Shown one piece after another: positions 18,057 through 64,000 of a stretch of 64,000 nucleotides of DNA. The stretch comes from a virus (taxonomy: Duplodnaviria; Caudoviricetes): the IMG/VR virus record IMGVR_UViG_3300005739_000025, one strand, 5' to 3'. The notes under the pieces were generated by a model. That model saw only the letters and a program-made list of their open reading frames with translations, had not been told where the DNA came from and searched no databases. The first letter of the stretch is position 1; the number at the start of each line of letters is the position of its first letter. The translations under genes were made by a program, and so were the position numbers.

Positions 18057-18131
18057 ATGAAACTACATACATCAATTATGGATTCAGGTCGACCAAGTCT
18101 CTTTGGGAAATGGACAACCTGTATCTTTTAA
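18057..18131 (+). CDS. Leader peptide 1, MKLHTSIMDSGRPSLFGKWTTCIF
   Basis: 24 codons; its stop abuts the antiterminator 5' strand; codons match the array-1 anticodons. Confidence 0.7.
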   Translation: MKLHTSIMDSGRPSLFGKWTTCIF

Positions 18132-18159
18132 GCGGGTATATAGTAGAACTTTTTGTACC

Positions 18160-18191
18160 CGCTACCTAATTAAATAGGTAGCGTTTTTTTT
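18160..18191 (+). terminator. Intrinsic terminator
   Basis: CGCTACCTA-attaaa-TAGGTAGCG followed by T8. Confidence 0.85.
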
Positions 18192-18501: not shown

Positions 18502-18577
18502 TGCGGAGTCGACAAGGGGTTAAGTCAGAAGTCTCATAAGCTTCTATGCGCTGGTTCGAATCCAGCCTCCGCAACCA
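18502..18577 (+). tRNA. trnM: tRNA-Met(CAT), initiator-like body lacking the three G-C anticodon pairs
   Basis: TGCGGAG/CTCCGCA-ACCA, A11-U24, loop CTCATAA. Confidence 0.85.
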
Positions 18578-34509: not shown

Positions 34510-34539
34510 ATATCAATATTTACAAAAAAAACTTGACTT

Positions 34540-35124
34540 TTGTTTTTGTTCCGTTATAATATGTTTATGAAAGCTAAAAAACTAATTGATAATTCTAAGA
34601 TTAGTCATTTGCTAGATGGAGTTAATACTAATAATAAACTCTCAGTTTGGTGGTATGATCTTAAGAAATCTATTAGATATATGATACCCTATCAAATAGT
34701 TGACTTTTATAATAAAAAAATTGAAACTATTTGGAAACCAAGACATTCCAGAATCAGAAAAGCTATTCCAAAATACTGGATGGATTTAGATTATGTAATT
34801 GTAGAAGTTAATTTTGAGATTATTAAATCATTTTACGAGGATGAATATAAAGAAGGTTTAGTTGATTGGACCGTAGATAAAAGTCACTCAGAATTTGCTA
34901 ACTGGCTTGAAAGTTCTTATCGCTATATTAAATACATAAAACCGGAATTAGAAAAAGAAAAGGAGGCAGCATATCCAAGCAATGATATCTCAATCAAACA
35001 AAGAGAGAAAATGTCCTATAACGAGCTTTATGGAGAGGTGGACAAAATTGAAAAACACATTCATAGGATGGATACTAAAATTCTAACCGATCTAATAAAG
35101 TATAGAGATTTTCTTTGGACATGA
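34540..35124 (+). CDS. Hypothetical protein (true start probably 34561 or 34567)
   Basis: ORF behind the early promoter at 34533-34560. Confidence 0.55.
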   Translation: MFLFRYNMFMKAKKLIDNSKISHLLDGVNTNNKLSVWWYDLKKSIRYMIPYQIVDFYNKKIETIWKPRHSRIRKAIPKYWMDLDYVIVEVNFEIIKSFYEDEYKEGLVDWTVDKSHSEFANWLESSYRYIKYIKPELEKEKEAAYPSNDISIKQREKMSYNELYGEVDKIEKHIHRMDTKILTDLIKYRDFLWT

Positions 35125-39859: not shown

Positions 39860-40226
39860 TTATAATATTTAGTAAAAGTTTATTTTTTGTGTAATTAACA
39901 TAATTATTTATATGGACAACGAAATATCCTTTATAAAGCTTATAAATGCATTAAGTAGATGCAAGGACACAGTTCAATTATATATTAAAAAATCTGAACA
40001 CTTAGGAAATATTAATGGAAGAGATTCTAATTATTTTTTATCTATTCAACAAAAATTAGATGATATTATAAAGGAGTTGAATGGGTAAAGGATCAAAGTG
40101 GAGAAAAACAGATTTTAAGAAGTTTTTTAGCAACTTCGATGGAATCAAACCTGCAAACAAAAAACTTCATAAAGAAGAGGTTAAGAAAGCTGGAAAGACA
40201 ATTTATAAGTATTAATAAATACTTTA

Positions 40227-40877
40227 ATGGTTTTTAACTATAAAAAGCTTTTTGAACAGCTATTAAAAGAAATTGATGTAAAAAATATAGGATTTTTTCC
40301 AGGCAAATTTAAACCACCCCATAAAGGTCATTTTAAAACAGCCTCTGTTGCAGCAAAACAAAACGATGTTGTTGTTGTTTTAATATCTGATAAAGAACAT
40401 GAAGGTTATACCGCGGAGAAATCTTTTAATATATGGTCAATATACAAAAAATATATACCAAACATTTTTCCCTATATAGTATCACCAACCCCCGTGCTAG
40501 CGTGTTATGATTTAGCCAATATCTTAAACAATGGAGAATATAAAGCTTCTCCTAAATCACCAACTATTAAATCAAACGCAAATGAAATAGTAGATAACGT
40601 TCAAGAGATTAAATCATACATTAATGTTGGAAATAATATAAATCTTAATCTTTATTCATCTCCAGAAGATCAAAGCAGATTTAAAAATATCTTAAAGGCT
40701 CCATATATGGGCAGAAGTATTATGAAAATAGAATTTAAACCTGTAGATAGACTAACAAGTGCTACCGCGTTCAGAACAGCGCTAAAAACTAAAAAAGGAA
40801 TTAATAATTTCCTTCCAAGTAACATATCTAACGACGATAAATTAAAAATTATAAATATATTAAATGATTCCGTTTAA
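40227..40877 (+). CDS. Cytidyltransferase-like (HIGH-motif) nucleotidyltransferase
   Basis: FPGKFKPPHKGH, TSATAFR. Confidence 0.75.
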   Translation: MVFNYKKLFEQLLKEIDVKNIGFFPGKFKPPHKGHFKTASVAAKQNDVVVVLISDKEHEGYTAEKSFNIWSIYKKYIPNIFPYIVSPTPVLACYDLANILNNGEYKASPKSPTIKSNANEIVDNVQEIKSYINVGNNINLNLYSSPEDQSRFKNILKAPYMGRSIMKIEFKPVDRLTSATAFRTALKTKKGINNFLPSNISNDDKLKIINILNDSV

Positions 40878-42198
40878 AAAATTTCTACATTTAGATAATT
40901 GTATTTTATTAGAATCAAATACAACTTCAAAGCAAATGGAAACTCATTTGACTCATTTAGAAGATTTAGCAATTGAAAGAGGCAAACAGGGGTTTAATGA
41001 TTTTGTTTCAACTGTATCTCAATTTATAAAAAAAATTGAAGGACAGGAGTCTGATATAGATATTAATGCAAAAATAGATGGTTCACCGGCTTTATTATTT
41101 GGAAGAGATCCTAGAAAAGAATTTGAAGGTCAATTCTTTATAGCGTTGAAGTATGCTGTGGACGCTACAAAAGGTATAATAAAAGAAGGAGCTAAGTTAT
41201 TACACTCAGATAGAGAGATTCAACAATTTTATGGGGATAGACCAGATTTTGCTAAGCGATTATCAAACTTACTAAGAGAGTTAAATAGAGCTTATGACAA
41301 CTCTGGACTAATCTATCAATGTGATGTATTGTATGCAGCTGCTACAGACAAACAAGTTCAGGAAATAGATGGTGAGGATTATATAATCTTTAAGCCTAAT
41401 GTAATCGTATATGCTATTCCAGTAGATGAGAAGAGCGAGTTGTTTAACCAAGTTAACAATAGTGAGATAGGGGTTGTGGTTCACGATTCCTTTGAAGGTA
41501 TTCCTAAAGACAGTTATATTAAATTAAAACAAAAGACTAGAAGAATTACCAAATTAGTAAATTTTGCAAAAAACGCTAACGTGTTTATTATGGGAGCTAA
41601 TTTTTCTCAAGTTGATGTAAATGTTAATAACAAATTTACATTTCAAATTAATAGTTTACTAGGAGAGTGTGCACAATTAGTAGCCCAAATACCAGACGAA
41701 TTTAACAATACATATGTTAATAGTCAGATAATGGAATATCTAAAAATCTACATTAACAAACAAGTTGATATGCCAACAGGAGGTATTTTTGGTAAAGACT
41801 TTAAAGATAAAGACGTAAACAGATTTATAAAAGGTTTTATAGTATTTTTAGAAAATAGATTTAAAGTTATAATTGGAAAAAAGAAAACAGAAAGAGGTAG
41901 AATGGGTCAAACAGAAAAATTAAATTCGTTGATCGATTATATCAATAGCAATATTGAAAGTATGTTTTATCTATTAAAGTTGTTTTCCTTAATGATTAAG
42001 ATTAAAAAGCTCATTATGTCTCTAATAGAGCAATTAACTTATGCTCTTAAAAGATCATTCTTTCAAGCTCCAGATGGAACTTTTGTAGCAACTAAAGGCG
42101 AAGGTCACGTTCTCTTTAACGGTGATACCCATGTTAAGATAGTTGACAGATTAGAATTTACAAAAGTAAATAGAGCTGCCGGTGGAAAAAGAGGTTGA
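40864..42198 (+). CDS. DUF6267-like protein with ligase-type KxDG motif
   Basis: THLTHLED, KIDGSPALLFG, FKPNVIVY, EGHV, KIVDRLEF. Confidence 0.7.
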   Translation: MIPFKKFLHLDNCILLESNTTSKQMETHLTHLEDLAIERGKQGFNDFVSTVSQFIKKIEGQESDIDINAKIDGSPALLFGRDPRKEFEGQFFIALKYAVDATKGIIKEGAKLLHSDREIQQFYGDRPDFAKRLSNLLRELNRAYDNSGLIYQCDVLYAAATDKQVQEIDGEDYIIFKPNVIVYAIPVDEKSELFNQVNNSEIGVVVHDSFEGIPKDSYIKLKQKTRRITKLVNFAKNANVFIMGANFSQVDVNVNNKFTFQINSLLGECAQLVAQIPDEFNNTYVNSQIMEYLKIYINKQVDMPTGGIFGKDFKDKDVNRFIKGFIVFLENRFKVIIGKKKTERGRMGQTEKLNSLIDYINSNIESMFYLLKLFSLMIKIKKLIMSLIEQLTYALKRSFFQAPDGTFVATKGEGHVLFNGDTHVKIVDRLEFTKVNRAAGGKRG

Positions 42199-42414
42199 TT
42201 TACACAAATATTCCTATATTATTTTAACAATGGGACACGGAATATTTCCAAATTACGGAAAGCAATGGATTAAGTCTGGAGAATTTAATAGACTTTCTCA
42301 TGCTGAAAAAAGCGCAGTATTTTTTCCTAGACATAAAAAGAAAGTAACCAGAAACATTAAATCGGAAGAAGAAGATGATTCATTTGCTAAGCGTAATAAT
42401 AAGAAAAAATAATT

Positions 42415-42603
42415 ATGTATATTGTTAAAGTAGGAAAAGAAGAAGGGGCTCTTGAAAAAGCTCTTAAAAGGTTGAAATCTAAGATAATAGAAGATGGTCT
42501 TATGGAAGAATTATATAGACTTAGAGCTTTTGAGACCCCCAAGGAAAAGAAAAAGCGAAAACTTAGAATTAGATCTAAAGTATTTACTCGAAATAAATCT
42601 TGA
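42415..42603 (+). CDS. rpsU: Ribosomal protein bS21
   Basis: LEKALKRLKSK...GLMEEL...AFETPKEKKKRK. Confidence 0.85.
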   Translation: MYIVKVGKEEGALEKALKRLKSKIIEDGLMEELYRLRAFETPKEKKKRKLRIRSKVFTRNKS

Positions 42604-42634
42604 CTAAATTTGTAATTCCTCGATAATAGGTACA

Positions 42635-43471
42635 ATGAAAATTGACCTAGAAAAAACAAGCTTCATTAATGTAGAGGAAGTTGAAATTCCTTCCTCTTTT
42701 TACAATCGATTTAAGACTGAAAACAATCTTATCGATACTTTGTTCGGAGGCGGTGGCTTCCTCCCCGGTACTTCTTTCGCTCTAGCCGGGGGCCCCGGTT
42801 CTGGTAAATCTACTTTTCTTCTCCAGATTGGTGGTATTCTAGCTTCTCAAGGCAAGAACGTAGCTTATATTTCTGGCGAAGAGAGTGTTGTTCAAATCTC
42901 GTTTAACTGTAAGCGAATGAACATTAAGGGGGTCAAGGTGTCTAATATGACAGATGTTGACGAAATTTGTCAACAACTTGAAAAGAATAAATTTGACTTT
43001 GTTGTTATTGACTCTTTCCCGACTATCACTGCTAAGAGGGCTAAGTCGTTCAAGAAGCGCGAAGAGTATGTTATTAGTCGCTTGTGCAGTACTGCTAAGA
43101 AGACAGATACAGTCATTGGTTTTATTCAGCACGTTACTAAACAAGGCAATTATAAAGGGTCAACTCTTCTTCCTCACTCTGTTGATATGACCATTAAACT
43201 TACAAAGAACGAGGACGATCCTCAGAATCTTAACCTTCGTGACTTTATGGTCACTAAGAATCGTTTTGGGTCTAATGCGTTTATATCGCTCAATCTCACT
43301 CAACATGGATTTGATCTTGACAAAGACGTTAAAGCTAATGACCCTCTTGAAGGTGTGAGAGCTATTACTATGCAGCAAGCGGTTAGTATGTTCGGAACAT
43401 ACTACAAAGCCCATAAGATTCTTCAGCAGAAGGGTTTTGTTAAGAAGAGTAAGAAGTTTGTTAGAAACTAA
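42635..43471 (+). CDS. RadA/Sms-like RecA-family ATPase (no Zn finger or Lon-like domain)
   Basis: GGPGSGKST, YISGEES, VVIDS, HVTKQG.YKGST.LPHSVD, KNRFG. Confidence 0.8.
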   Translation: MKIDLEKTSFINVEEVEIPSSFYNRFKTENNLIDTLFGGGGFLPGTSFALAGGPGSGKSTFLLQIGGILASQGKNVAYISGEESVVQISFNCKRMNIKGVKVSNMTDVDEICQQLEKNKFDFVVIDSFPTITAKRAKSFKKREEYVISRLCSTAKKTDTVIGFIQHVTKQGNYKGSTLLPHSVDMTIKLTKNEDDPQNLNLRDFMVTKNRFGSNAFISLNLTQHGFDLDKDVKANDPLEGVRAITMQQAVSMFGTYYKAHKILQQKGFVKKSKKFVRN

Positions 43472-43883
43472 ATCTTAATGGCTTTTTACCAGCAGTAGGA
43501 GCTACAGGTTTTGAAGTAGGAGCAGGAGTAGATGTCGGTTGATTATAACCTGTTGCTGAAGGCGAACCAGGCTCACTTACTGATCCAGCTTGAAGGTTTA
43601 CTAAGTCAGGATTACTTTGAGCAGCTGCTGGAATACCCTTAATTTGTTTATAGATAGATAAAACATTACCATTTTGAAGTAATTGTTGCATAGCTTTTTT
43701 AACATCAGCACTTAAATTTGAACCTTGTACTAATGCTAATACTTGAGCAATATCTTTTCCTTCAACTTCTTGTTTAATTTGTCCTACAATATTTTGAACA
43801 TCGTCTTGTTGAACATTCTGCAAATTACTTTGCTCCTTAAGTGCTTTGTAGCTTTCAAAAATAAATTTACTGTCTCTATGCAT
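43461..43883 (-). CDS. Hypothetical late protein
   Basis: TATAAATA upstream; N-terminus MHRDSKFIFESYKALKE resembles a cleavable propeptide. Confidence 0.6.
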   Translation of the reverse strand: MHRDSKFIFESYKALKEQSNLQNVQQDDVQNIVGQIKQEVEGKDIAQVLALVQGSNLSADVKKAMQQLLQNGNVLSIYKQIKGIPAAAQSNPDLVNLQAGSVSEPGSPSATGYNQPTSTPAPTSKPVAPTAGKKPLRFSF

Positions 43884-43941
43884 AATTATATTTATAAAAA
43901 AAGCTTTATCTTTTACAGGGTTCTAGTATAATATATCGTAT

Positions 43942-44027
43942 GCCCGAGTGGTGGAATGGCAGACACAACGGACTTAAAATCCGTTGGCTTCACGGCCGTG
44001 TGGGTTCGAGTCCCACCTCGGGTACCA
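43942..44027 (+). tRNA. trnL: tRNA-Leu(TAA)
   Basis: Type II cloverleaf, loop CTTAAAA, ACCA end; own GTTCT-N2-TATAAT promoter. Confidence 0.95.
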
Positions 44028-44048
44028 TTTTAGACTAAATAAAATAGT

Positions 44049-44102
44049 ATGACACTTTACATACAAAATAAACAATATAGAATAGAACAGCTCCTGGGCT
44101 GA
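44049..44102 (+). CDS. Leader peptide 2, MTLYIQNKQYRIEQLLG
   Basis: 17 codons; an 11-codon run matches the array-2 anticodons. Confidence 0.7.
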   Translation: MTLYIQNKQYRIEQLLG

Positions 44103-44123
44103 GTTCTAACGTTGTTTACTTGG

Positions 44124-44156
44124 AACCCCGGCCTGTATAACAAGCCGGGGTTTTTT
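44124..44156 (+). terminator. Intrinsic terminator
   Basis: AACCCCGGC...GCCGGGGTT followed by a T-tract. Confidence 0.9.
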
Positions 44157-44172
44157 ATTGATCTTTGACAAT

Positions 44173-44340
44173 TTATAATATGAAAGAGAGGAGGTATTTA
44201 ATAGCCCAAGAAAACTTTCTTTTACTAAATCTCTTTTTACGAGGTTTACTTAAAGACTGTTCTCTGCTATTAATATAGCCAATCCCCCCATACATGCTAT
44301 AAACCAGACCAAGACCATTTGTGTAGTGGTGTGTGTTCAT
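44173..44340 (-). CDS. 55-aa basic protein, antisense to the array-2 leader region
   Basis: MNTHHYTNGLG...PRKKRFSKRKF; AATAAATA upstream on the minus strand. Confidence 0.45.
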   Translation of the reverse strand: MNTHHYTNGLGLVYSMYGGIGYINSREQSLSKPRKKRFSKRKFSWAIKYLLSFIL

Positions 44341-44428
44341 AACATGTATATTTATTGAAAAGATAAAGTAAATAAAGTTGAAACAAGTTTAAGATTTCTT
44401 AATACTTGTAGACATCAGTATTAAATTA

Positions 44429-44512
44429 GGGAGTCCGGTAAAGTTGGAGAGTTACTGTGGACTGTAAATCCACCGCCACTTGGCTAAATAGGTTCGAATC
44501 CTTTGGCTCCCA
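44429..44512 (+). tRNA. trnY: tRNA-Tyr(GTA)
   Basis: GTGGA-CTGTAAA-TCCAC with long variable arm. Confidence 0.9.
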
Positions 44513-44517
44513 TTTAT

Positions 44518-45519
44518 ATGAAAACTGCTAAAATTATAGGTTGTGGGTTATCTGGCATTACTTCAGCCGTTCTCTTAAAGGAGAAAGATTATAAGGTAAC
44601 TATATTTGAACAGAGAAACCATATTGGAGGCAATTGCTTTGATCAAGAAATAAACGGAGTTAACGTACACAAATACGGGCCTCATATCTTTCATACTAAT
44701 GATGAAGAAGTATTTGCTTTTCTTAGCAGGTTTACAGGTTGGTTTCCATTTAAGAACCAGCCATTAGGTATAACTGATATAGGTCCTATTCCCTTACCAT
44801 ATAGTCGTAAGACAGTTAAAGTTATAGGTAGAGAGTTATCTCAAGAAGAAATTGTAGATTTGATCTTTAAAGGGTATTCAGAAAAACAATGGGGTGTTCC
44901 ATTTGATCAGATACCAAAGTCTATTACAAATAGAATACCTAAAACAAAAGATTGTGACGATCCTACATGGTATGAAGGAGAGAAGTATCAGTGTCTTCCT
45001 TATCCAAGCTATACAAAGATGATGGAAAATATGTTAGAGGGAATAGAGGTTAGACTTGGTTGTTCTGAAAACGATTGGAAAGAATATAATGCTGATCTAA
45101 CAGTCTATACAGGAAAAATAGATCAATACTTTAACTTCTGTTTTGGTAAACTTCCATATAGATCATTGGATTTTGATTTTAAAATCAATTCTAATAGATT
45201 AGATAACTCTATTTTAAATTACAATCAAAAAGAAAAACCTTATACCAGGGTAGTAGATTATGGTTATTTTACATACAATTACGATAAACCTGAAACAGTA
45301 GTTGTTGCAGAATACCCAAAAGAATGCGGTGATAGTAATATTCCTTACTATCCAATCCCTTTTGGTAATGGAATAGAAATATATAACAAATACAAAGAGC
45401 TTGCAGATAAAGAAGAAAATACTATATTTGTAGGAAGATTAGCTACCTATACATATCTGGATATGTGGATGGCAGTTAGGCAAGCAATGTTGAAAATTAA
45501 AAATTACCTCGTGGTGTAA
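44518..45519 (+). CDS. glf: UDP-galactopyranose mutase; stop codon inside tRNA-Gln
   Basis: Start reassigned to 44518; GCGLSG, E.RNHIGGN, HKYGPHIFHT, PYYP, FVGRLATY.Y.DM. Confidence 0.92.
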   Translation: MKTAKIIGCGLSGITSAVLLKEKDYKVTIFEQRNHIGGNCFDQEINGVNVHKYGPHIFHTNDEEVFAFLSRFTGWFPFKNQPLGITDIGPIPLPYSRKTVKVIGRELSQEEIVDLIFKGYSEKQWGVPFDQIPKSITNRIPKTKDCDDPTWYEGEKYQCLPYPSYTKMMENMLEGIEVRLGCSENDWKEYNADLTVYTGKIDQYFNFCFGKLPYRSLDFDFKINSNRLDNSILNYNQKEKPYTRVVDYGYFTYNYDKPETVVVAEYPKECGDSNIPYYPIPFGNGIEIYNKYKELADKEENTIFVGRLATYTYLDMWMAVRQAMLKIKNYLVV

Positions 45520-45578
45520 TGGTAACACAGAAGCCTTTGGAGCTTTTATTCATAGTTCGAGTCTATGCGAGGTAGCCA
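45505..45578 (+). tRNA. trnQ: tRNA-Gln(TTG)
   Basis: TACCTCG/CGAGGTA-G-CCA, loop CTTTGGA. Confidence 0.92.
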
Positions 45579-45882
45579 TAAATAATTTTTGTGGAATATT
45601 TTAAAACTATCTTTAAACTAATAGGCGAAATGTTTGAAGAGCTGTTTGGAAAATGAATAAACAATCATTAATTATGGAGCTTGCTAAGCTTCAATTAGAA
45701 TACCAACAAGCTGTCAACTCTTTTAGTAACAAAGGGGTTTTTATAGACTTAGAGTCCCGCACACAAAAGGCTTATGGTTCGCTGATGAAGCTTGGAATGA
45801 ACCCTAAAGATATTAAAGAAGAAGTAGAAGAAATGATAAGAAATAGCTGGTAAGTTTTAAAGGTTCCTATATACTATAGATA

Positions 45883-46068
45883 ATGAAATTCGAAAACGCA
45901 TTGCTTATTTTTATAGCCATTTATATTATTATAGATTCTATTCTTTCAGTACTAGATTCTAATAAGATTAATAATCTTCAAACACAAATCGATGAGCTTA
46001 AAATTATTGTTGATCAGAAGTTTTTATCTTCGATGGTTTTAGACACATACAATTTAATGCCCCGATAG
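45883..46068 (+). CDS. Small membrane-anchored protein; stop codon inside tRNA-Ile(TAT)
   Basis: N-terminal TM helix; GTTCC-N2-TATACT promoter upstream. Confidence 0.55.
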   Translation: MKFENALLIFIAIYIIIDSILSVLDSNKINNLQTQIDELKIIVDQKFLSSMVLDTYNLMPR

Positions 46069-46151
46069 TTTAATGGCAGAACACAGGTCTTATACACCTG
46101 AAGCTGGGAGACGCTGGCGTAGTGAAGGTTCGAGTCCTTCTCGGGGTACCA
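46059..46151 (+). tRNA. trnI: tRNA-Ile(TAT) with long variable arm
   Basis: GCCCCGA/TCGGGGT-ACCA, CAGGT-CTTATAC-ACCTG, 23-nt extra arm. Confidence 0.82.
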
Positions 46152-46157
46152 AAAATT

Positions 46158-46298
46158 ATGGCACAGAAAACTAAAAATAACATTATAGGAAAAAGTTCTT
46201 TGGGAACTCATTACACTCAAGCAAAGAACGTTCGTCAGTTCTATAATAAGAATACTAGAGCTCAACGTTCTGATGCTGGTAAACGTAGGAAACCTTAA
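46158..46298 (+). CDS. 46-aa basic RSDAG-motif peptide 1
   Basis: MAQKTK...RAQRSDAGKRRKP. Confidence 0.7.
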   Translation: MAQKTKNNIIGKSSLGTHYTQAKNVRQFYNKNTRAQRSDAGKRRKP

Positions 46299-46299
46299 T

Positions 46300-46434
46300 A
46301 TGGCTAAAAATAAAATTGTAGGCGATTGGGGTGCATGGAGTGCTGGTAATAAGCAGACAGCGGCTAGCCTTAGAAAAGTTGGTATTAAAGCTCGTGCGCG
46401 AAGGTCTGACGCTGGTAAAAAGAGAAAGCCTTAA
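46300..46434 (+). CDS. 44-aa basic RSDAG-motif peptide 2
   Basis: MAKNK...RARRSDAGKKRKP. Confidence 0.7.
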   Translation: MAKNKIVGDWGAWSAGNKQTAASLRKVGIKARARRSDAGKKRKP

Positions 46435-46435
46435 T

Positions 46436-46573
46436 ATGATTATTCAAGCCTGGGGACATAAAAACGCATCTAAAAATGCCGCAAAACAAGCTAGAGCATT
46501 TGGTTATAAGGCGCGTGCAAAAAGATCTGATGCAGGTTACAAGCGCATGCGCAAGCCTAGACCGCCAAAATAA
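46436..46573 (+). CDS. 45-aa basic RSDAG-motif peptide 3
   Basis: MIIQAWG...RAKRSDAGYKRMRKP. Confidence 0.7.
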   Translation: MIIQAWGHKNASKNAAKQARAFGYKARAKRSDAGYKRMRKPRPPK

Positions 46574-46579
46574 AATTAC

Positions 46580-46652
46580 GGCCTTGTAGCTCAATGGTTA
46601 GAGCAGTCGGCTCATAATCGATTGGTTGTAGGTTCGAATCCTACCGGGGCCA
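46580..46652 (+). tRNA. trnI: tRNA-Ile2(CAT) (lysidine type; Met not excluded)
   Basis: GGCCTTG/CGGGGCC-A body resembling ileX, loop CTCATAA. Confidence 0.85.
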
Positions 46653-46656
46653 CAAT

Positions 46657-46777
46657 TTGGCTAGGCGCATGCTCCAAAGGATCCAAATGCTACGGAGACT
46701 CCCGCGCTAGAGACGATGCAATGTTTGCGCAAACAACATCTAATTCTAGAGGAAGGAACTTAAGACCTTCTAGCCAA
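46657..46777 (+). ncRNA. Unassigned structured RNA
   Basis: TTGGCTAG/CTAGCCAA enclosing GCAT/ATGC, TGTTTG/CAAACA and GAAGG/CCTTC stems. Confidence 0.5.
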
Positions 46778-46783
46778 TATTTT

Positions 46784-46857
46784 TTCTTACTTGCATACTC
46801 GGGGTCTTCCATGTAATATTGGAGCTAGTCTAACCCATAAGGTGTTGCAAGTAAGAA
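46784..46857 (+). ncRNA. Unassigned structured RNA
   Basis: Perfect 12-bp TTCTTACTTGCA/TGCAAGTAAGAA closing stem. Confidence 0.45.
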
Positions 46858-46868
46858 CTTTTTTCGTA

Positions 46869-46940
46869 GGGTCGGTAGCTTAATGGTAAAGCAGCTGGCT
46901 TTTAACCAGTTGAGTGCGAGTTCGACTCTCGCCCGACCCA
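46869..46940 (+). tRNA. trnK: tRNA-Lys(TTT)
   Basis: GGGTCGG/CCGACCC, loop CTTTTAA. Confidence 0.93.
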
Positions 46941-46983
46941 TACCAATATCCATATAAGGCACTACTTAAGAATAAATAATAGT

Positions 46984-47400
46984 ATGAAACTTCATAATAA
47001 ACAAAAAGGTAATATAGGAGAAGCTGCTACTGCTCTTTTTTTGCTCAAAAAAGGCTACCCAGTGTTTAAAGAGCTAGGAGATTTATCTAAAGTAGATTTG
47101 TTGACAATTATTAATAACAGATGTTATAAAATACAAGTTAAAAATGCATCACGCGAAACTAACAAAGGTTCATTTACTTTTAATACTATTAAATATGGAC
47201 CAAATTATTCTTACAAATATAAAAAAGAAGATGTAGATATTTTTGCAGTCTATATTTCAACCATAGATGAATTAGTATTTTTGGGTTGGGGTGATTTAAA
47301 AAATGATACCCTTAATATTAGATATAAAAAAAGCTTGAACAACCAAAGTAAAAATATAAACTGGTATGAAGATTTTAAAAATTTTGATAGATTAATTTAA
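46984..47400 (+). CDS. PD-(D/E)XK homing-type endonuclease (PDDEXK_5-like)
   Basis: KGNIGE...VDL...YKIQVK...YKKEDVDIFAVY. Confidence 0.8.
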   Translation: MKLHNKQKGNIGEAATALFLLKKGYPVFKELGDLSKVDLLTIINNRCYKIQVKNASRETNKGSFTFNTIKYGPNYSYKYKKEDVDIFAVYISTIDELVFLGWGDLKNDTLNIRYKKSLNNQSKNINWYEDFKNFDRLI

Positions 47401-47435
47401 GGTATTGGTTCTGGGTTCGAGTCCCACCCGTTCCA
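47396..47435 (+). pseudogene. Orphan 3' half of a tRNA (anticodon to acceptor)
   Basis: TTTAA-GGTAT-TGGTT-CTGGG-TTCGAGT-CCCAC-CCGTTCC-A. Confidence 0.7.
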
Positions 47436-47446
47436 TAAATATTCAT

Positions 47447-47839
47447 ATGCCAGTTTGTACATCTTTTGATTTTATATCAGTAAAAAGCGCAGGACAAGGA
47501 TTGTTTAATGGATACTATGTTCCTATTTCCGGATTTAAAACTACAGAAGATGGGCTAGAGAGATATAGTCATTATGTTTTAAATTTCTTTCAAAATGAAG
47601 GATATCCTAGATTAGAAGTAACAAATTTATCAGGTACACACTATGTGTGGGCTTTAAAATCTGACCCATCTACAATAGTTTATAGAACAAATGCAGTTAC
47701 AACTTCTACAACTATTTCCCAATGTCCTAATGGTCTAACCTGGATGTGGGGCCCCAATACTTCTTCAGGTTCGATACCTTCCTCTTCAGGTAAAACAAAT
47801 AAAAGTATTGCAGCAGAAATGGCAGCTCTCATTTCTTAG
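47447..47839 (+). CDS. Hypothetical late protein
   Basis: Start reassigned to ATG 47447 behind CATAAATA. Confidence 0.55.
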   Translation: MPVCTSFDFISVKSAGQGLFNGYYVPISGFKTTEDGLERYSHYVLNFFQNEGYPRLEVTNLSGTHYVWALKSDPSTIVYRTNAVTTSTTISQCPNGLTWMWGPNTSSGSIPSSSGKTNKSIAAEMAALIS

Positions 47840-47873
47840 TTGATAAAATACCAATTTCTTTTAAACTAATTTT

Positions 47874-48158
47874 ATGATTTATGAAAATTATGGCATTGTT
47901 AGAACTGATGCCCCAGATCAACAGCTTATCAATTTAATTGAGTCCATGAGCAAATGTGTTAGAGAGACCGAAGGACACTTTTCTTACAGCAGATGGAATA
48001 GACTCGTGGAGATTTATTATTATCTTAGATATGGTCTTTATGGAGATGCATGGATTAAGATTAATGATTTAAGAGATGACTTAAGATGGAGAATTCCCGA
48101 GGACGTCTATCACACATTAAAAGACATTTGCAAGGGAATGAATGTTCGAATAGCATAA
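47874..48158 (+). CDS. Hypothetical protein
   Basis: 94-aa ORF. Confidence 0.55.
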   Translation: MIYENYGIVRTDAPDQQLINLIESMSKCVRETEGHFSYSRWNRLVEIYYYLRYGLYGDAWIKINDLRDDLRWRIPEDVYHTLKDICKGMNVRIA

Positions 48159-48164
48159 TTTAAA

Positions 48165-48239
48165 ACCTAGGTAGCTCAATGGTAGAGCTAGCGGCTGTTA
48201 ACCGCTCGGTTGTAGGTTCGAATCCTACCCTAGGTGCCA
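48165..48239 (+). tRNA. trnN: tRNA-Asn(GTT)
   Basis: AGCGG-CTGTTAA-CCGCT, G-CCA end. Confidence 0.93.
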
Positions 48240-48243
48240 TTAC

Positions 48244-48319
48244 GCGTTGGTAGCTCAGTGGATAGAGCAGTAGCCTTCTAAGCTATTGGTCGCAGGTTCG
48301 ATCCCTGCCCGACGCGCCA
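48244..48319 (+). tRNA. trnR: tRNA-Arg(TCT)
   Basis: GTAGC-CTTCTAA-GCTAT, G-CCA end. Confidence 0.95.
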
Positions 48320-48723
48320 TTTTTACTTGCTCTTTAATGAAGAGCTTATAAACTAAAATATATGAATAAATTAATTACCTTTCCAGATGAAAGCAAGTTT
48401 GAACTTATTTTTTGCGTGGAACATCCCAATCAATCGTTTCATGTTAAATATAAAGATAACAATATAGTTCAAGAGCTATTTGTTCCAAAAGATTTTATTT
48501 CTAATGAAAAGTAATTGGAAGGATATTAATATAGGAGACTTTTTTATTCCTGATTTAGTCTTAAACGGAGATACATTTTTGTATCAAAAGATTGACGAAC
48601 AAAAGCATAATGGCTATAATTGTATTTTGTTAAATACCGGGGAGCTTTGCAATATTTTTATTAATCCAACCTTACAAGAGCATTTTGTTAAAGTCGAAGT
48701 AACATTTAATTTAAGGGAGTTTA

Positions 48724-48870
48724 ATGGCTAGTAGAATAATTAAAGGATCAAATCATAGATACGAGACTGCTTCGTGGCTTAGAAAGCAAATCAATGCTGG
48801 TGTACCTAAGGGTTGTAAGATAAAGTTTAGAGCACAACGCAAAGACGCAGGTACCAAGCGAAGTAAATAA
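48724..48870 (+). CDS. 48-aa basic RKDAG-motif peptide 4
   Basis: MASRIIKG...RAQRKDAGTKRSK. Confidence 0.65.
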   Translation: MASRIIKGSNHRYETASWLRKQINAGVPKGCKIKFRAQRKDAGTKRSK

Positions 48871-48876
48871 TATTAC

Positions 48877-48948
48877 GTCGCCATCGTCTAACGGTTAGGA
48901 CACATGGTTTTCATCCATGCAATCGGAGTTCGATTCTCCGTGGCGATG
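48877..48948 (+). tRNA. trnE: tRNA-Glu(TTC)
   Basis: CATGG-TTTTCAT-CCATG. Confidence 0.93.
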
Positions 48949-48992
48949 CTTATAGCTTGCACTATTCTTATCATATATTAAAATACTGGTCT

Positions 48993-49532
48993 ATGATTAA
49001 GAACATTATATATAGTGTTTTGGCAGCTGTAGCTATGGTTACCGTAGCTGTTGCCGGAACTGATTACAAAAAGAATGTTATTGAGGAAGACTGTAACTTT
49101 CGCAATAACGAGTGGCAAATTGATGCATATGGTGCTGGTGCCTTCTATAAGAACGGCCGTCCCGGTTGGGGTGGAGGAATCGGTGTTAACTATATCTTTG
49201 CCCGGTACTTTGGTATCGGAGTCGAGCAAGATTTAGTTGGACGTAATAGTACTGGTTCTAGTGCTTATGCTGAATGGGCTACCCTTGGTAACCTATTCCT
49301 CCGTTATCCAATCTGTTCTTTCAATCTCGCCCCCTACGCGATGGTAGGTGGGGGCGCGATTTACGGAACAAACAAAGGTATCGGCGTTGGGACAGTCGGT
49401 GGAGGCCTTGAGTGGCGCTTTGATGAAAACATTAGTGTTTTCTCAGACGCTCGTTGGCTTTATACCGGCAATGGAAACAACGACCACAGCGGTGCTATTC
49501 TTGGTCGCGCTGGTGTTCGCGTTGCATTCTAA
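48993..49532 (+). CDS. Outer-membrane beta-barrel protein (Verrucomicrobia-style)
   Basis: Signal peptide, AGTDYKK, alternating beta strands, C-terminal GVRVAF. Confidence 0.8.
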   Translation: MIKNIIYSVLAAVAMVTVAVAGTDYKKNVIEEDCNFRNNEWQIDAYGAGAFYKNGRPGWGGGIGVNYIFARYFGIGVEQDLVGRNSTGSSAYAEWATLGNLFLRYPICSFNLAPYAMVGGGAIYGTNKGIGVGTVGGGLEWRFDENISVFSDARWLYTGNGNNDHSGAILGRAGVRVAF

Positions 49533-49549
49533 TTAAATAGAAAAACAAG

Positions 49550-49581
49550 TTAAGAGCCAGTCGAAAGACTGGCTCTTTTTT
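49550..49581. terminator. Bidirectional intrinsic terminator
   Basis: AAGAGCCAGTC-GAAA-GACTGGCTCTT followed by a T-tract, between convergent genes. Confidence 0.9.
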
Positions 49582-49820
49582 TACCAAAAATATATTTCGT
49601 AAGAAGATTCGTAATAAGATGGTTTATCTGGAACTAATTTATCAAAGTTAACTTTATTTCTTATTTTATAATCGTAGTCATTTATTTTTCCTTTATAAGT
49701 TAAGACTAATTCATTCTTATGACTCTCTCTATCTCCTTGCTTTTCATAAGCATAATTACCTGACACGGTACACCCAGTTAAAAATACAACTAAAACTATT
49801 TGCATTAACTTTAAATGCAT
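49581..49820 (-). CDS. Small lipoprotein
   Basis: Lipobox FLTGC. Confidence 0.55.
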   Translation of the reverse strand: MHLKLMQIVLVVFLTGCTVSGNYAYEKQGDRESHKNELVLTYKGKINDYDYKIRNKVNFDKLVPDKPSYYESSYEIYFW

Positions 49821-49833
49821 CTATAATGTATTT

Positions 49834-50226
49834 ATGAACGCTAAACACCAATTCAAATACACTTTTTCAGAATCTAATATGGAAGAATTCTCTCCTGTTG
49901 AGATTACATTTGAAGTTCCAGGAGATATTACAATTCCGCAGATGTTATATAACTTCGAATCATATCTTAAAGCCTGCGGTTTTTATTTTGATGGTCATTT
50001 AGAAATTGTTGATGAGACTTTAAATAATATCGATATAGCCGATGAAGTGTATGGCTATGTGGCTGACTTTGACAAAGAGTGTGGTTGTAAGACTACTTCT
50101 AGTCCTTTAGAGAAGTTTAACGAGGATCTATCTAAGCTTGAAAAAGAAGTAAAGAAAAATAAATGGGTACACGGTATTTGTAACCCTCCTTCATCTGATT
50201 GGAAAGTAACAAATAATGGAATATAG
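49834..50226 (+). CDS. Hypothetical phage protein
   Basis: FESYLKACGFYFDG motif. Confidence 0.55.
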   Translation: MNAKHQFKYTFSESNMEEFSPVEITFEVPGDITIPQMLYNFESYLKACGFYFDGHLEIVDETLNNIDIADEVYGYVADFDKECGCKTTSSPLEKFNEDLSKLEKEVKKNKWVHGICNPPSSDWKVTNNGI

Positions 50227-50709
50227 AATTAAAGAAGAAAAAGTTAACGGACAATTATACTTCTATCCTCAATGGAAGAAAAGATGGTTTTGGCGTAGAT
50301 TTGTATGGTGGGGAGGGGAAGATGGAACTACTCCCCATACAGCCTTTTATAGAGATATGGCTGGTGCTTTGAGAGAGATAGCTGAAGATAAAGAAAATAG
50401 AAAGAAAAAAGCTATGGAAACGCCAAATAAACCGATTTATCATTATATACAATAATAAACCATGATTACAAATAAACATTTTACAAAATTTAAAGAACAC
50501 CCAGAGGATAGAATTTATAGAGATAGAGAATTTATTAAAAGGTTAAATAATTATATTCATTCTGTATTTGATTTACTGGCATATGATTTAAGACTAAACG
50601 AAGAAGGTAAAGACTTCTTGTTTGATTATGTCTTTAATGAAGAAGCAGATATTGATTTTAGTGATTTTTTAAGAAAGTATAAAAGAAAGTATAGCGACTT
50701 TTATAAAAA

Positions 50710-51708
50710 TTAATCGTATCTAAATCTTATAGCTGCAATACCGTTTTGCCCATTATGAGGGCCATTATTTAAACCACTTCTCCAACCATTACCCCCACTT
50801 CCAGGAGCTGACGAACCCCCAGTTACATCACTTCCATAACCTCCTTGACAGATATAGCCTATTAAGCTACTATTTATTCCCGATCTAGGATTATAAGGAG
50901 CTCCCTCAAAGCCTCCAGGACCCCCTCCCCCTCCAGCCCATTGAGCTGAAGGGCTTGAAGTCGCTCCCCCACCTCTTCCTTCCCTTCCAGGAGAATTTCC
51001 CTCAGCTCCCCCTCCTCCATAATTACCTGAGGATCTACCCCCTCCTCCCCCGGACCCACCCCCTGTTCCTGAATTTCCGTTTTGCCCAGGTCTAACTGCA
51101 TTATCAGAAGATCCTCCTCCCCCACCTCCCCCTGCTGTTATTGAACCTCTAGAAGGGTTAGAAGTTATAAGAAAGGTTGTTTCACCCATAGACCCCCTAA
51201 CACTTTGACTTGTAGCTCTAGCCCCCCCTCTTCCGACATCAAATCTCCAAGTTTCTCCTGTAAAAGTTCGCCCTATATTACTTTCTACATACCCCCCGGC
51301 ACCCCCTCCACCACCATCCGTAGAAATTGTATTTCCTCTTCCTCCGCCCCCGCCTCCTGCGACTATTAAATAATCTATTTGTGTAAAACCTGTAATACCT
51401 GGATCTACAATTAATACATTACCTGAGCCAAATCCTGTATTACCAAATCTTACTGTTCTTCTTCCTGTGTTGCCAGCATTAGGATCCAAACCAGAGTCAG
51501 ATTCACTTGTTGATCCGGAATAGGATATTGTAGGGCATTTTGATTTACCAGCTAAATCACTTATTTTTATTGTTGTATCTGCTGTTGTTTTTCTTCCCAA
51601 TTCTCTAAATAAAGACTCATTAAAGTTCGCTTGAGCGTTTGATGTTCTGCCCAGATACGAATTAATCATAGACATTGATATAGGAACATTTGTATTAGGT
51701 AATGGCAT
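50710..51708 (-). CDS. Glycine-rich tail/receptor-binding-like protein
   Basis: Start reassigned to 51708 (MPLP...ISMS); YLIVAGGGGGG...GGGGAGG; GIAAIRF end. Confidence 0.7.
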   Translation of the reverse strand: MPLPNTNVPISMSMINSYLGRTSNAQANFNESLFRELGRKTTADTTIKISDLAGKSKCPTISYSGSTSESDSGLDPNAGNTGRRTVRFGNTGFGSGNVLIVDPGITGFTQIDYLIVAGGGGGGRGNTISTDGGGGGAGGYVESNIGRTFTGETWRFDVGRGGARATSQSVRGSMGETTFLITSNPSRGSITAGGGGGGGSSDNAVRPGQNGNSGTGGGSGGGGGRSSGNYGGGGAEGNSPGREGRGGGATSSPSAQWAGGGGGPGGFEGAPYNPRSGINSSLIGYICQGGYGSDVTGGSSAPGSGGNGWRSGLNNGPHNGQNGIAAIRFRYD

Positions 51709-51716
51709 AAAAGTAT

Positions 51717-52094
51717 TTATTTGATCCAACTAGCATCAAACACTTTCTCTCTCCCCTCTCGAATTGAATGAGAGAGTTGAGCTATTGAAGTAACATTATT
51801 TGTATATGCTCTTATTCTCCAAGATCCCATATTATCATAGGTAAAGAGCTGATTTTTTCCTGGAGGGTATAGATAGGCCACCATGGCATGTCCTCTTAAT
51901 TTACCTGTATCATTATCTTTCCAGGAATATCTAAATACTTCAGACCAAACACCATATTTGTTTAATGATTGTTTAAAAATAATGGCTGTAGGCAAGCAGG
52001 CATTTACTTCTCTCTCCATCCAATATTCGGGATTTTGGGGTGTAGTTTCGCATCCCGTTAACGCTAGAAGAATAAAAACCACCAAAATTTTCAT
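51717..52094 (-). CDS. Lipoprotein with Cys-His motif, similar to 24700-25113
   Basis: LTGC lipobox; NACLP...GHAMV...TYD. Confidence 0.55.
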   Translation of the reverse strand: MKILVVFILLALTGCETTPQNPEYWMEREVNACLPTAIIFKQSLNKYGVWSEVFRYSWKDNDTGKLRGHAMVAYLYPPGKNQLFTYDNMGSWRIRAYTNNVTSIAQLSHSIREGREKVFDASWIK

Positions 52095-53169: not shown

Positions 53170-53579
53170 AACAGAAAGCGCCAAAGATGGAACTTATTCC
53201 AATTACGTCTGAGAACTACGAAAGAGTTTCTTGGCCAGCGCCTCATGGTACATCTTTTAAATTAACAAAAGATAAAAAATATGGAGTTACAAAGTTTACA
53301 GAGATGGGTCCTCTCGGTAAAGATTATATGCTAAAAAACGGGTACAGAAGAATATATTACTTTGATGGAGATGATGTATTAAAGTACTATGTCTATAATT
53401 CTATTCCCCTACCCCACCCCATTGATGCTAAAACAATGTATGAAATTGTTGATAAAAATACCGTTCCTAAAGCTTTAAGAAACGAAATTATGATTGCGTA
53501 TGTTATAGATAACTTAGGAAGACTTCTAAAGCCTAAAACTAGAGAGCATTTTGGGGATATTTTTAGCGAATTATCTTGA
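53166..53579 (+). CDS. Hypothetical protein with shared C-terminal tag
   Basis: ends LKPKTREHFGDIFSELS. Confidence 0.7.
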   Translation: MKQKAPKMELIPITSENYERVSWPAPHGTSFKLTKDKKYGVTKFTEMGPLGKDYMLKNGYRRIYYFDGDDVLKYYVYNSIPLPHPIDAKTMYEIVDKNTVPKALRNEIMIAYVIDNLGRLLKPKTREHFGDIFSELS

Positions 53580-54554
53580 CTAAATTCTGGGTTCCTTCAT
53601 AATAGGCACAATGAAAGATTACCTTTTATTGTTTATTGAATGTGTCTACCATCTTTTTAATGATAATAGACCCTTTAAAAAGAAAATTGAGCCATCATTA
53701 TTGGCAGAAAATATCTCATGGTTTAATAATTGTTCTTGGATCGAACAATTGATTGCATTTAAACAAATTTCCCGTTATTATACTTTTAAATGACATACGA
53801 AGAACAAATAGAACAGGTGCAAAGCGCTCTCAATTATCTCATTGCAGAGGGTATTGCTGTAGAAGATGGAAAAGGTCTCTATAGGCTTAAAACTGATAAA
53901 GAACTTAAACTAGAAATAGAGAGTCTTATTAATGAGTAATAAAGAAAAGATTATTAGAATTGGTACCTGGTTAACTATTTTTACTTTTTCTGTTGCCTTT
54001 TGGGTAGTTATAACTTATTATTCTTATCACTTTGTAAGAAATCTTATAATGTCTAACTAATATGAATAAAGAAACAATCGATTTGTTCAAACAATACGTG
54101 GTAGCAACATTAGATGAGCCTAACGGTATTTCTAAAGAAGCATATTCTTCGCTAATTAACCTTATGCAAGTTAATAGAGATTTTGCTCAAGAAATGCATG
54201 ATGTTGTAGATAAAATTGACTCACATGATAATAGATACTTCCTATTGGAAGATAACGAAGAGGAGTTTTCTTACGAGGAATGATCAAGCTTTCAAATATT
54301 AATGAGGTAGCAGATAAGCTAAAAGAACTTAAAGAGGCTGTTGCTGTTTGCCAGAAAATAGAAGATCAAGTTTCGTGGGCTTGTGACTTTACAACTTATA
54401 GAACTATATCTGATGCCTTAGAGCCTATTTATGAGGCTGTAGATAGTGCAAAAGATTCAATTAATCAAGAAATAAATTATATTGAAGATCGTTTAGAAGA
54501 TTACAAGTGCAAACTTGATATTTTTGAACACGAAAATAAGATAGAAGTAAACGA

Positions 54555-55677: not shown

Positions 55678-56063
55678 GTTCTTTGACATTTAAGGGGGTA
55701 GCAGATAGCCGGTTGAGTCGTGCACTGCTTTAAACTGATCTTGACTCGATCAAGCCTTCTTAACAACGGTAAGGTATGGTGTTTAACGTCCCTAACAAAA
55801 TGTATCACCTTATAAATGGTATGCGAACTCTACCACTCTTAAGATCTAAAGAGTCTTCACAGTAAGATAAGCCGCAACAGGCTAAAAAATAGAGCGTGTC
55901 GGTTCTAGGTAAGTACCAAGCCGAAGACTATAGATGGTCAAAAACCTATGTAAAATACGGTTAGGTGTTCTTCGAGTGAGTGTATAAAAATATGCTAGGC
56001 ATTACTCACTCGATACCAGATAAGGCGCAACTTAATCTGGTCCGAAGTGCGATAAAAACACCC
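55678..56063 (+). ncRNA. Large (~370-nt) unassigned structured ncRNA with its own promoter and boxA-like leader
   Basis: No ORF; many stems, e.g. TCGAGTGAGT/ACTCACTCGA, ACCAGAT/ATCTGGT, GGTGTT/AACACC, AGCC/GGCT. Confidence 0.65.
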
Positions 56064-62041: not shown

Positions 62042-62332
62042 ATGAAGATCAAAAACGTCAAAAAGTATACGATTAGTGAACCGAAGCGCACTACAAGTCA
62101 TGCGTATTTCTTTCATGATAAAGAGTCTATAGCAGATAACTTTGTCAATAGACGTCAACGTCCCTATGAGGTGTATAAGTATTTGCTTCTTGAACTACTT
62201 CATAAGGAAGGCATTACAGGTGTCAAACCACAATGGAGACAGCGCTGTGGATGTTCCTGTGGCTGTTCGCCTGGGTTTGTTCTCCAGGGCCTGAACAACT
62301 TCCATAAGGACTTCTTTATTGACGTCGAATAA
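62042..62332 (+). CDS. Small early protein with CGCSCGCSPG motif
   Basis: Behind the early promoter at 62006-62034, AGGA SD. Confidence 0.55.
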   Translation: MKIKNVKKYTISEPKRTTSHAYFFHDKESIADNFVNRRQRPYEVYKYLLLELLHKEGITGVKPQWRQRCGCSCGCSPGFVLQGLNNFHKDFFIDVE

Positions 62333-62596
62333 AGGTTCCGATATACTGTTAGGTGATGAATAAGAAACGCGACTACAGGGTCGTTTATTATGACTGGAAG
62401 GAAGATGCACCTGTGGGGGATATTATCCGTTACGGAAGGAAATACAAGAACTTCTTCCAGCTCCCCTATGATGATGGGAACTATATCGTGTTTTCCAACT
62501 TTAAAATCAAGTCCGGAGAGGACTGTGAAAAGCTAATCTTTCTGGACGTCTCAGAATTTTGTTGATCTAATAAAAGGTTCCGGTATAATAAATTGT

Positions 62597-63656: not shown

Positions 63657-64000
63657 TTCAAAGGACCCTTGAACTTCTCACGAAAAACTACTTTCTGGTT
63701 GACTTTCTTTTCGGTTCCGCAATAATATTAACAATGAACAGATACGAAAAGTATGAATGGTTGGAGCAAACGTGCTCGGAGAAGTTTATGAAAGAAGAGT
63801 TCGTTCTTGAGCTTCTTCATTATATGGGCGAGGATGACTTTGAAGATTTCTACGACAGATTGTGCAGGCTTTGGGATATTGCCAAGAGCCCGGAAGAGCT
63901 GGAGAAACAATTTGCCTAAGATTAAAGGTTCCGGTAATATATTAGGTATGATAATGACACCGAAAGCAAAGCAATACGGACGTAAGCTCCAGGAGATCTC

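Follow-up and report, generated by a model that had tools for sequence, protein, structure and literature searches.

A probable leader-peptide transcription attenuator at the entry of a phage tRNA array

Gene order around the element

The window analysed here is a 64-kb stretch of AT-rich DNA (GC ~33%) from an uncultured large phage. It carries phage-type genes—including those for a DUF6267 protein, a KaiC/DnaB-like ATPase, and S21—and 21 tRNA genes, which ARAGORN calls in two groups. The phage-encoded gene for ribosomal protein S21 (42415–42603, plus strand) lies just 5′ of the ATPase gene and is kept in all relatives. Two JGI metagenome contigs (L001 and L002) share 100% identity with the window, represent the same phage and were uninformative as relatives. 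No named close phage was found, the phage collection giving matches at the tRNA level only, and in IMG/VR neither an exact 33-mer scan nor a scan with the DUF6267 protein returned a match. A search for RNA runs turned up two, stored as contigs, with shares of 0.04 and 0.19 of the sampled words.

The element described below follows a tRNA-Leu(TAA) gene (43942–44027, plus strand; called by ARAGORN, 59.6 bits with the Rfam tRNA model). Both are fed by a sigma-70-like phage promoter (43904–43932, plus strand) that combines a weak −35 box (CTTTAT) with a conserved spacer element (GGTTCTAG) and TATAAT. GGTTC-N3-TATAAT occurs 57 times on the plus strand against 39 occurrences expected, a count found in 0 of 100 shuffles, and other copies of the promoter carry TTGACN 16–17 nt 5′ of the −10 box. 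The promoter family (TTGACN, ~8 nt, GGTTCC, 2–3 nt, TATAAT) is almost restricted to the plus strand, with examples at 34530–34560, 53573–53603, 62317–62347, 62560–62589, and 63697–63726. The next copy after 43904–43932 is at 45862, and no copy of the motif was found in the window between the terminator of the element and tRNA-Tyr, the first gene of the downstream array. A weak sigma-70-like site is present at 44378–44406, and in relatives without the ~270-nt insert described below a TAAATA-like motif sits immediately 5′ of tRNA-Tyr, where it could act as a late promoter bypassing the putative gate. Given this motif and the weak site, the array may also be transcribed independently of the gate. 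Many phage genes have ATAAATA 5–11 nt 5′ of their ATG, a position that suggests late mRNAs with a very short 5′ leader or none.

The region between tRNA-Leu and the element varies among relatives. One of them carries a tRNA-Leu(TAA) gene with a ~160-nt insert in the anticodon region (L003, 4611–4852; not called by ARAGORN), possibly a group I intron, and another has a degenerate tRNA-Leu-like sequence at the matching spot (L008, ~11243–11315). In several relatives (L003, 4893–5348; L004, 11082–11540; L006, 11463–11924; L007, 5276–5731), an ORF of ~151 residues for an HNH-type endonuclease separates tRNA-Leu from the leader or from tRNA-Tyr; this ORF is missing from the window, and, judged by sequence, its presence or absence suggests mobile-element turnover in this interval.

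The element itself starts with a short leader ORF (44049–44102, plus strand), whose ATG lies 21 nt 3′ of tRNA-Leu and whose 17 codons, encoding MTLYIQNKQYRIEQLLG, are followed by TGA at 44100–44102. Downstream is an intrinsic terminator (44123–44156, plus strand), identified earlier from its GC-rich stem and U6 tract and folding at −20.1 kcal/mol, with a 10-bp stem (arms at 44123–44132 and 44144–44153), an 11-nt loop, and the U6 tract at 44151–44156. Directly after it, 3 nt past the U-tract, we found a boxA-like motif, GATCTTTGACA (44160–44170, plus strand; GAUCUUUGACA as RNA). In the eight variants found via the neighbouring protein (see below) this motif is invariant but for C or T at one position, GATCTTTGA[C/T]A, and it agrees at ~9 of 11 positions with the boxA of E. 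coli rrn operons, the NusB/NusE site. As it lies past the U-tract, the motif would be transcribed only by read-through; if it acts as a boxA, a long untranslated unit would have a gate and, behind it, a signal for antitermination. A copy with one mismatch is found at 55678–55688. We also considered GATCTTTGACA as a −35 box and discarded this assignment, as no variant has an acceptable −10 box at 16–18 nt and the window shows no enrichment of the motif (27 hits against 22 expected).

Eight tRNA genes interspersed with protein genes follow on the plus strand (44429–48949; ARAGORN): tRNA-Tyr-GTA (44429), tRNA-Gln-TTG (45505), tRNA-Ile-TAT (46059), a tRNA with a CAT anticodon (46580), tRNA-Lys-TTT (46869), tRNA-Asn-GTT (48165), tRNA-Arg-TCT (48244), and tRNA-Glu-TTC (48877). 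A UDP-galactopyranose mutase gene (44518–45519) lies within this array. ARAGORN labels the CAT tRNA (46580–46653) as Met; its 5′ half resembles that of E. coli tRNA-Ile, and it may be a lysidine tRNA-Ile2 rather than a tRNA-Met. Another CAT tRNA, at 18502–18577, resembles elongator Met tRNA.

The full series of eight tRNAs is found in the same order 3′ of the element in three relatives (L006, L007, and L022), with partial sets in others. In seven relatives, 25–36 nt separate the U-tract from tRNA-Tyr; the window and six relatives have an insert of ~270 nt between the gate and this gene. A minus-strand ORF is called within the insert in four of them, with clear kinship only among the window, L005, and L006. 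In the window it spans 44173–44340, encodes 55 residues and has a TAAATA motif 8 nt before its ATG; identity is 91% in L005 and 65% in L006, and the ORF is missing from seven relatives. A bidirectional terminator that would also serve this ORF was rejected: its strand has no U-tract, and the element is present in relatives without the ORF.

Conservation of the leader ORF and of three alternative helices

Our comparison covers 14 distinct variants of the element, namely the window and 13 variants from metagenomic relatives. One set was collected via the neighbouring ATPase (L003, L005, L006, L007, L008–L010, L012, and L015), the other by scanning IMG/VR with two conserved flanking motifs (L016, L017, L018/L024, L019, L022, and L023), from which the false hits of the pattern scan—L020, L021, L025, L026, and L027, with neither ORF nor tRNAs—were excluded. 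Invariance of the flanking motifs is built into the six variants of the second set by the search itself; their ORF, helices, and tRNAs are free of such selection. The element is absent from L004 and L013/L014, whose neighbouring ATPase is 65–71% identical, and is therefore lineage-specific.

All 14 variants contain an ATG, 15–18 codons, and then GGC TGA; examples of the encoded peptides are MTYKQNIQIRENSLMG (L007), MTHKQCIQIRENSHTG (L003), and MFYYIQNEYRILTRKG (L017). ORF length is 48, 51, 54, or 57 nt and so changes in multiples of three only, unlike the adjacent spacer (19–23 nt) and terminator (25–33 nt), which show single-base shifts. The codons from the ATG to a conserved TAC ATA CAA are highly diverse, with the frame always intact; in nine of the 14 variants the in-frame ATG is the sole ATG nearby, and in L005 the ancestral ATG is gone and replaced by a new one in frame. 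The encoded residues change radically (I/K/M, N/C, Y/H), and the changes are compensated on the opposite strand of helix 1:2 (see below). Sequence comparison thus shows a leader whose reading frame is conserved and whose peptide is not.

These patterns bear on the idea that the leader specifies a short peptide with a function of its own, the hairpins doing no more than terminating its mRNA. Conservation of the frame in 14 variants would agree with such a role, as would a 34–38-residue lipoprotein-like ORF that is itself conserved and adjoins the leader in several relatives. The nature of the substitutions argues against it: radical replacements track changes on the facing RNA strand, the final four positions vary freely, and groups differ in the order of their residues while retaining the class of codon. 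We consider a functional peptide very improbable.

The lipoprotein-like ORF (signal peptide plus lipobox Cys) directly precedes the leader ORF in five relatives (with positions 11389–11505 in L008, 9898–10002 in L015, and ~5378–5494 in L003) and is missing in the window. In these five, the leader ATG is 4–7 nt past its stop codon, so that translational coupling would be possible. The leader itself has no Shine-Dalgarno sequence. As the genes of this phage generally lack one (an SD-like motif precedes 7 of 67 genes, against a background of 12.6%), its absence is not evidence against translation of the leader.

RNAfold predicts the same architecture for every variant, with three mutually exclusive helices designated 1:2, 2:3, and 3:4. 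In the minimum-free-energy structure of the element in the window, region 1 (44064–44092, plus strand) lies inside the ORF and forms the 5′ arm of helix 1:2. Region 2 (44094–44122) provides both the 3′ arm of this helix and the 5′ strand of the antiterminator, and it holds the invariant GGGCTGAGTTCT with the stop codon. Region 3 (44120–44134), the 3′ strand of the antiterminator, overlaps the 5′ arm of the terminator. Across variants, helix 1:2, which joins the codon run to the spacer after the stop codon, folds at −13 to −22.6 kcal/mol, and terminator 3:4 at −16 to −20.6 kcal/mol with a U5–U8 tract in each case. The earlier note had proposed a CAGC/GCUG hairpin as anti-antiterminator; that helix exists, but is merely the tip of the much longer 1:2 helix formed by the codon run.

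With region 1 masked and region 4 not yet transcribed, helix 2:3 forms at −11.6 to −21.1 kcal/mol in the 14 variants and at −15.5 to −16.3 kcal/mol in the window. The antiterminator pairing that had been drawn by eye, CUGGG..GUUCUAA with UUGGAAC-CCCGG, is the RNAfold structure of the nascent RNA (−16.3). In helix 2:3, GGGCUG and GUUC, with a bulged A between them, pair with bases just before and inside the terminator 5′ arm, tying up eight to nine of the first ten bases of that arm. Shuffling region 2 gave an equal or better helix in 16 of 1000 trials for the window. Helix 2:3 outperforms its shuffled counterparts in 12 of 14 variants (at most 16 of 1000 shuffles as good) and is weak in L003 and L008, where ~40 of 1000 shuffles were as good.

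The terminator stem exists in three versions among the relatives, which offer CGGCC(U), UGGCUC, or CGGCCC for pairing with the invariant GGGCUG; this part of region 3 shows only C–U exchanges, in either direction, each facing an invariant G. We scored the helices on a covariance-model alignment; MAFFT had misaligned the low-complexity 5′ parts. On this alignment, which is fitted to the model and so favours structure, pairing holds in 92.7% of cells, compared with no more than 57.6% for slid partners, and 15 pairs are changed on both sides (reached in 0 of 500 shuffles), among them 11 of the 13 pairs of helix 1:2 and 3 of the 9 pairs of the terminator; the same compensations are seen ungapped in L007, L012, L015, and L003/L008. 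That the locus holds a real, selected RNA element with a terminator is, in our estimate, virtually certain.

Covariation establishes RNA helices only, and this leaves room for a structured RNA that ends the upstream unit independently of translation—an element for RNA processing or stability, for instance, or a small RNA, or a switch with a protein or RNA ligand—with the ORF being incidental. The missing Shine-Dalgarno sequence at the leader points the same way, and in the five relatives with the lipoprotein-like gene the element directly follows it like an operon-end terminator. Such an RNA would leave several features of the ORF unexplained, however: the unpaired 5′ tail retains an ATG in frame despite sequence turnover (as in the L005 replacement), ORF lengths change by 3n next to non-coding parts that shift by 1–2 nt, the stop codon lies within invariant region 2, and the alternative 2:3 helix is kept through three terminator versions. 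There is also no match to an Rfam family. A cmscan of 40000–52000 (E up to 1) returned tRNAs and sub-threshold chance matches only, with nothing at 44030–44170; curated Rfam leader and riboswitch families (His, Thr, Trp, Leu, and Phe leaders; T-box) do not match the element, and a covariance-model search found no second copy in the window. We give a translation-independent RNA little credence. Taken as sequence evidence, the comparative data—an ORF in 14 of 14 variants, covarying helices 1:2 and 3:4, and a helix 2:3 kept across three terminator stems—lend support to the attenuator interpretation put forward in the earlier note.

Codon content, ribosome position, and the leader of the first tRNA array

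Codons 4–14 of the leader (44058–44090) read TAC ATA CAA AAT AAA CAA TAT AGA ATA GAA CAG. As the earlier note had observed, these 11 consecutive codons are all read by the eight same-strand tRNAs that ARAGORN calls downstream. Its further claim that every tRNA of the array is represented holds at the level of amino acids, all seven classes being present in the run, and for the CAT tRNA depends on taking it as Ile2 where ARAGORN's label is Met. A six-frame survey of the window yields just two runs of at least 11 such codons, and only the leader run contains all seven classes. Codons readable by the array make up 35% of those in the phage's own genes.

To relate codon position to RNA folding, we scanned the A site codon by codon, masked a footprint extending 12 nt past it, and folded the RNA under this constraint. 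In all variants, helix 2:3 stays at or below −10 kcal/mol when the ribosome stalls at codon 3 to approximately codon n−5, and is lost when it stalls on the stop or on any of the four codons before it. In every variant this boundary is also where the stretch of matching codons ends; codons of the tail (Ser, Leu, Pro, Thr, His, Gly) are unconstrained. The view of the whole run as a sensor therefore needs trimming at its 3′ end: most of its codons are in the sensing window, but GAA is at the limit (−10.8 kcal/mol) and CAG outside (−6.2 kcal/mol). A ribosome on the stop codon inside GGGCUGAG leaves just 0 to −3.3 kcal/mol of competing structure. In these constrained folds, the stop codon is placed such that a terminating ribosome would mask region 2, whereas one stalled in the run would leave it free, as the earlier note had anticipated. 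Control of the element by translation of its leader, as modelled here, strikes us as quite likely.

How far the codon match exceeds what an A-rich sequence yields by itself can be gauged with composition fixed. For the window, 6.9 of 11 matches are expected against 10 of 11 observed in the sensing window (P ~0.005), and in 11 of the 14 variants 9–10 of ~10 sensing-window codons match where 6–7 are expected (P 0.001–0.012 each). The match is not absolute in relatives: L003, L008, and L012 have 7–8 of 10, with two to three non-matching codons (CAC, TGC, ATT, or ATG) within the sensing window. The caveat raised beforehand, that A-rich codons are common in an AT-rich genome, was well placed: local A-richness accounts for about two thirds of the match, which is real and partly compositional.

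These numbers frame a third alternative, namely a translation-coupled attenuator that reports general translation capacity or ribosome–polymerase coupling (upon ribosome shutdown, host takeover, or a change in temperature), with the codon match a by-product of an A-rich region 1. In its favour, composition alone yields 6–7 of 10 matches, and three variants tolerate non-matching codons in the sensing window. Each sensed codon is present only once or twice, and if one tRNA ran mildly short the leader would respond less sensitively than his or phe leaders do. Small differences between the tRNA sets of partial contigs are not mirrored in leader content; the leader of G003, for instance, has Lys and Asn codons, yet the stretch examined has no Lys or Asn tRNA. 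On the other side stand the in-frame match above the compositional expectation in 11 of 14 variants, the end of the matching run at the edge of the sensing window in all of them, and a second leader that is not A-rich and matches the other array.

This second leader, attenuator 1, precedes the first tRNA array (ORF 18057–18131; whole element 18057–18190) and had been cited beforehand as an independent instance of the same logic. We found it conserved in three relatives (L032, ~1460–1600; L033, ~1144–1280; L029, ~641–780), with an ATG-to-TAA frame of 22–24 codons, directly followed by GCGGGTA. In the relatives, the terminator is CCCGCUG/CAGCGGG, and CCCGC of its 5′ arm is complementary to GCGGGTA; attenuator 1 of the window has a different terminator hairpin, with only 2–3 bases of overlap with the GCGGG/CCCGC helix. 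A peptide scan with the gene upstream of attenuator 1 found no relatives. The codons of this leader are mainly for Thr, Ser, Asp, Ala, Gly, Cys, Trp, Pro, His, and Arg (CGN), which are those of the array-1 tRNAs. When codons are assigned to tRNAs by strict wobble rules, the division of codons between the two leaders follows that of tRNAs between the two arrays in four genomes (Fisher p 0.012, 0.015, 0.0002, and 0.005), with tRNA lists that are incomplete in two of the four. Because a leader that is not A-rich carries the complementary codon set, the codon match is not simply a matter of A-richness. We consider a sensor of general translation capacity unlikely, and lean towards sensing of slow decoding of the codons served by the array.

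A proposed switch and its known counterparts

Where transcription enters its second tRNA array, this phage probably has a transcription attenuator of the leader-peptide type, operated by the ribosome. From the computed structures and ribosome positions we infer the following sequence of events. The leader RNA would be transcribed from upstream, starting at the tRNA-Leu promoter here and from the operon of the small lipoprotein gene in several relatives. With no ribosome on the leader, A-rich region 1 would pair with region 2 and terminator 3:4 would form. With fast translation of the 17 codons, the ribosome at UGA would mask region 2, so that the terminator would again form and RNA polymerase would stop at the U-tract. 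A ribosome delayed with its A site on approximately codons 3–13 (Tyr, Ile-AUA, Gln, Asn, Lys, Arg-AGA, Glu) would instead melt helix 1:2 and leave region 2 free. Its GGGCUG and GUUC could then pair with the terminator 5′ arm, and polymerase would read into tRNA-Tyr and the seven further tRNAs. Since the codons in the sensing window are those read by the tRNAs of the array, tRNA output would follow decoding demand: slow decoding of these codons would yield more tRNA, and sufficient supply would turn the circuit off.

A more specific version casts the attenuator as an OR-gate alarm for tRNA attack, in which the complete loss of any one targeted tRNA would halt the ribosome at the one leader codon for it and so switch on replacement tRNAs. 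This reading is motivated by the finding that phage tRNAs can replace those destroyed by host defences; the usual targets of anticodon nucleases in phage defence (PrrC, AriB of PARIS, retron PtuAB, and the colicin E5/D types) are Lys, Tyr, Asn, Gln, Glu, and Arg tRNAs (PMC10264068, PMC11555353, PMC11464382). We hold the alarm to be a speculative and rather unlikely refinement. If it were true, the phage would possess two circuits that supply tRNAs on demand, each leader and its array serving its own share of the genetic code.

If the attenuator reading in its general form is correct, this phage would measure decoding capacity and make tRNAs on demand, and attenuation of the trp/his type would extend to tRNA genes and to viruses. 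The role of phage tRNA genes has been debated for decades between codon compensation and the replacement of tRNAs destroyed by host defences, and to our knowledge almost nothing is known about their regulation. The codons of a leader would name the shortages that a phage is built to sense, which would make the two hypotheses experimentally separable by reporter fusions. For annotation, modules of a mini-ORF and a terminator could serve to delimit the functional units of phage tRNA arrays.

A literature search found no published leader-peptide attenuator before tRNA genes. Short ORFs may also lie in the tRNA region of phage T5. A close likeness is to the classical enterobacterial trpL, hisL, thrL, ilv, and pheL leaders, which share the short ORF, regulatory codons in region 1, the 1:2, 2:3, and 3:4 helices, and the intrinsic terminator. 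As in trp-type leaders, the stop codon is located where a finishing ribosome would block the antiterminator, and, as in the thr and ilv leaders, several amino-acid classes would be sensed. However, trp-type leaders regulate biosynthetic enzymes rather than phage tRNA genes and contain runs of one codon, in contrast to the seven classes present once or twice each here; furthermore, the phage leader lacks a Shine-Dalgarno sequence and has no sequence or Rfam family relationship to them.

The pheST attenuator of E. coli, with its pheM leader, places a component of the decoding machinery under control of charged-tRNA supply. It is likewise a leader-peptide attenuator for a translation component, but controls a synthetase instead of tRNA genes, responds to a single amino acid, and is cellular rather than viral. 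T-box riboswitches, too, are attenuators that read tRNA status and adjust genes of the translation apparatus. They bind uncharged tRNA directly and without a ribosome, whereas the phage element has an ORF and lacks a specifier loop, a T-box sequence, and an Rfam match. In the drug-responsive bmrCD and msrD attenuators, stalling on a short leader ORF turns a terminator off (PMC4191407; bioRxiv 10.1101/2021.11.29.470318). Stalling there is brought about by antibiotics and specific nascent peptides, in contrast to the phage leader, in which the peptide is free to vary and it is the codon class that is conserved.
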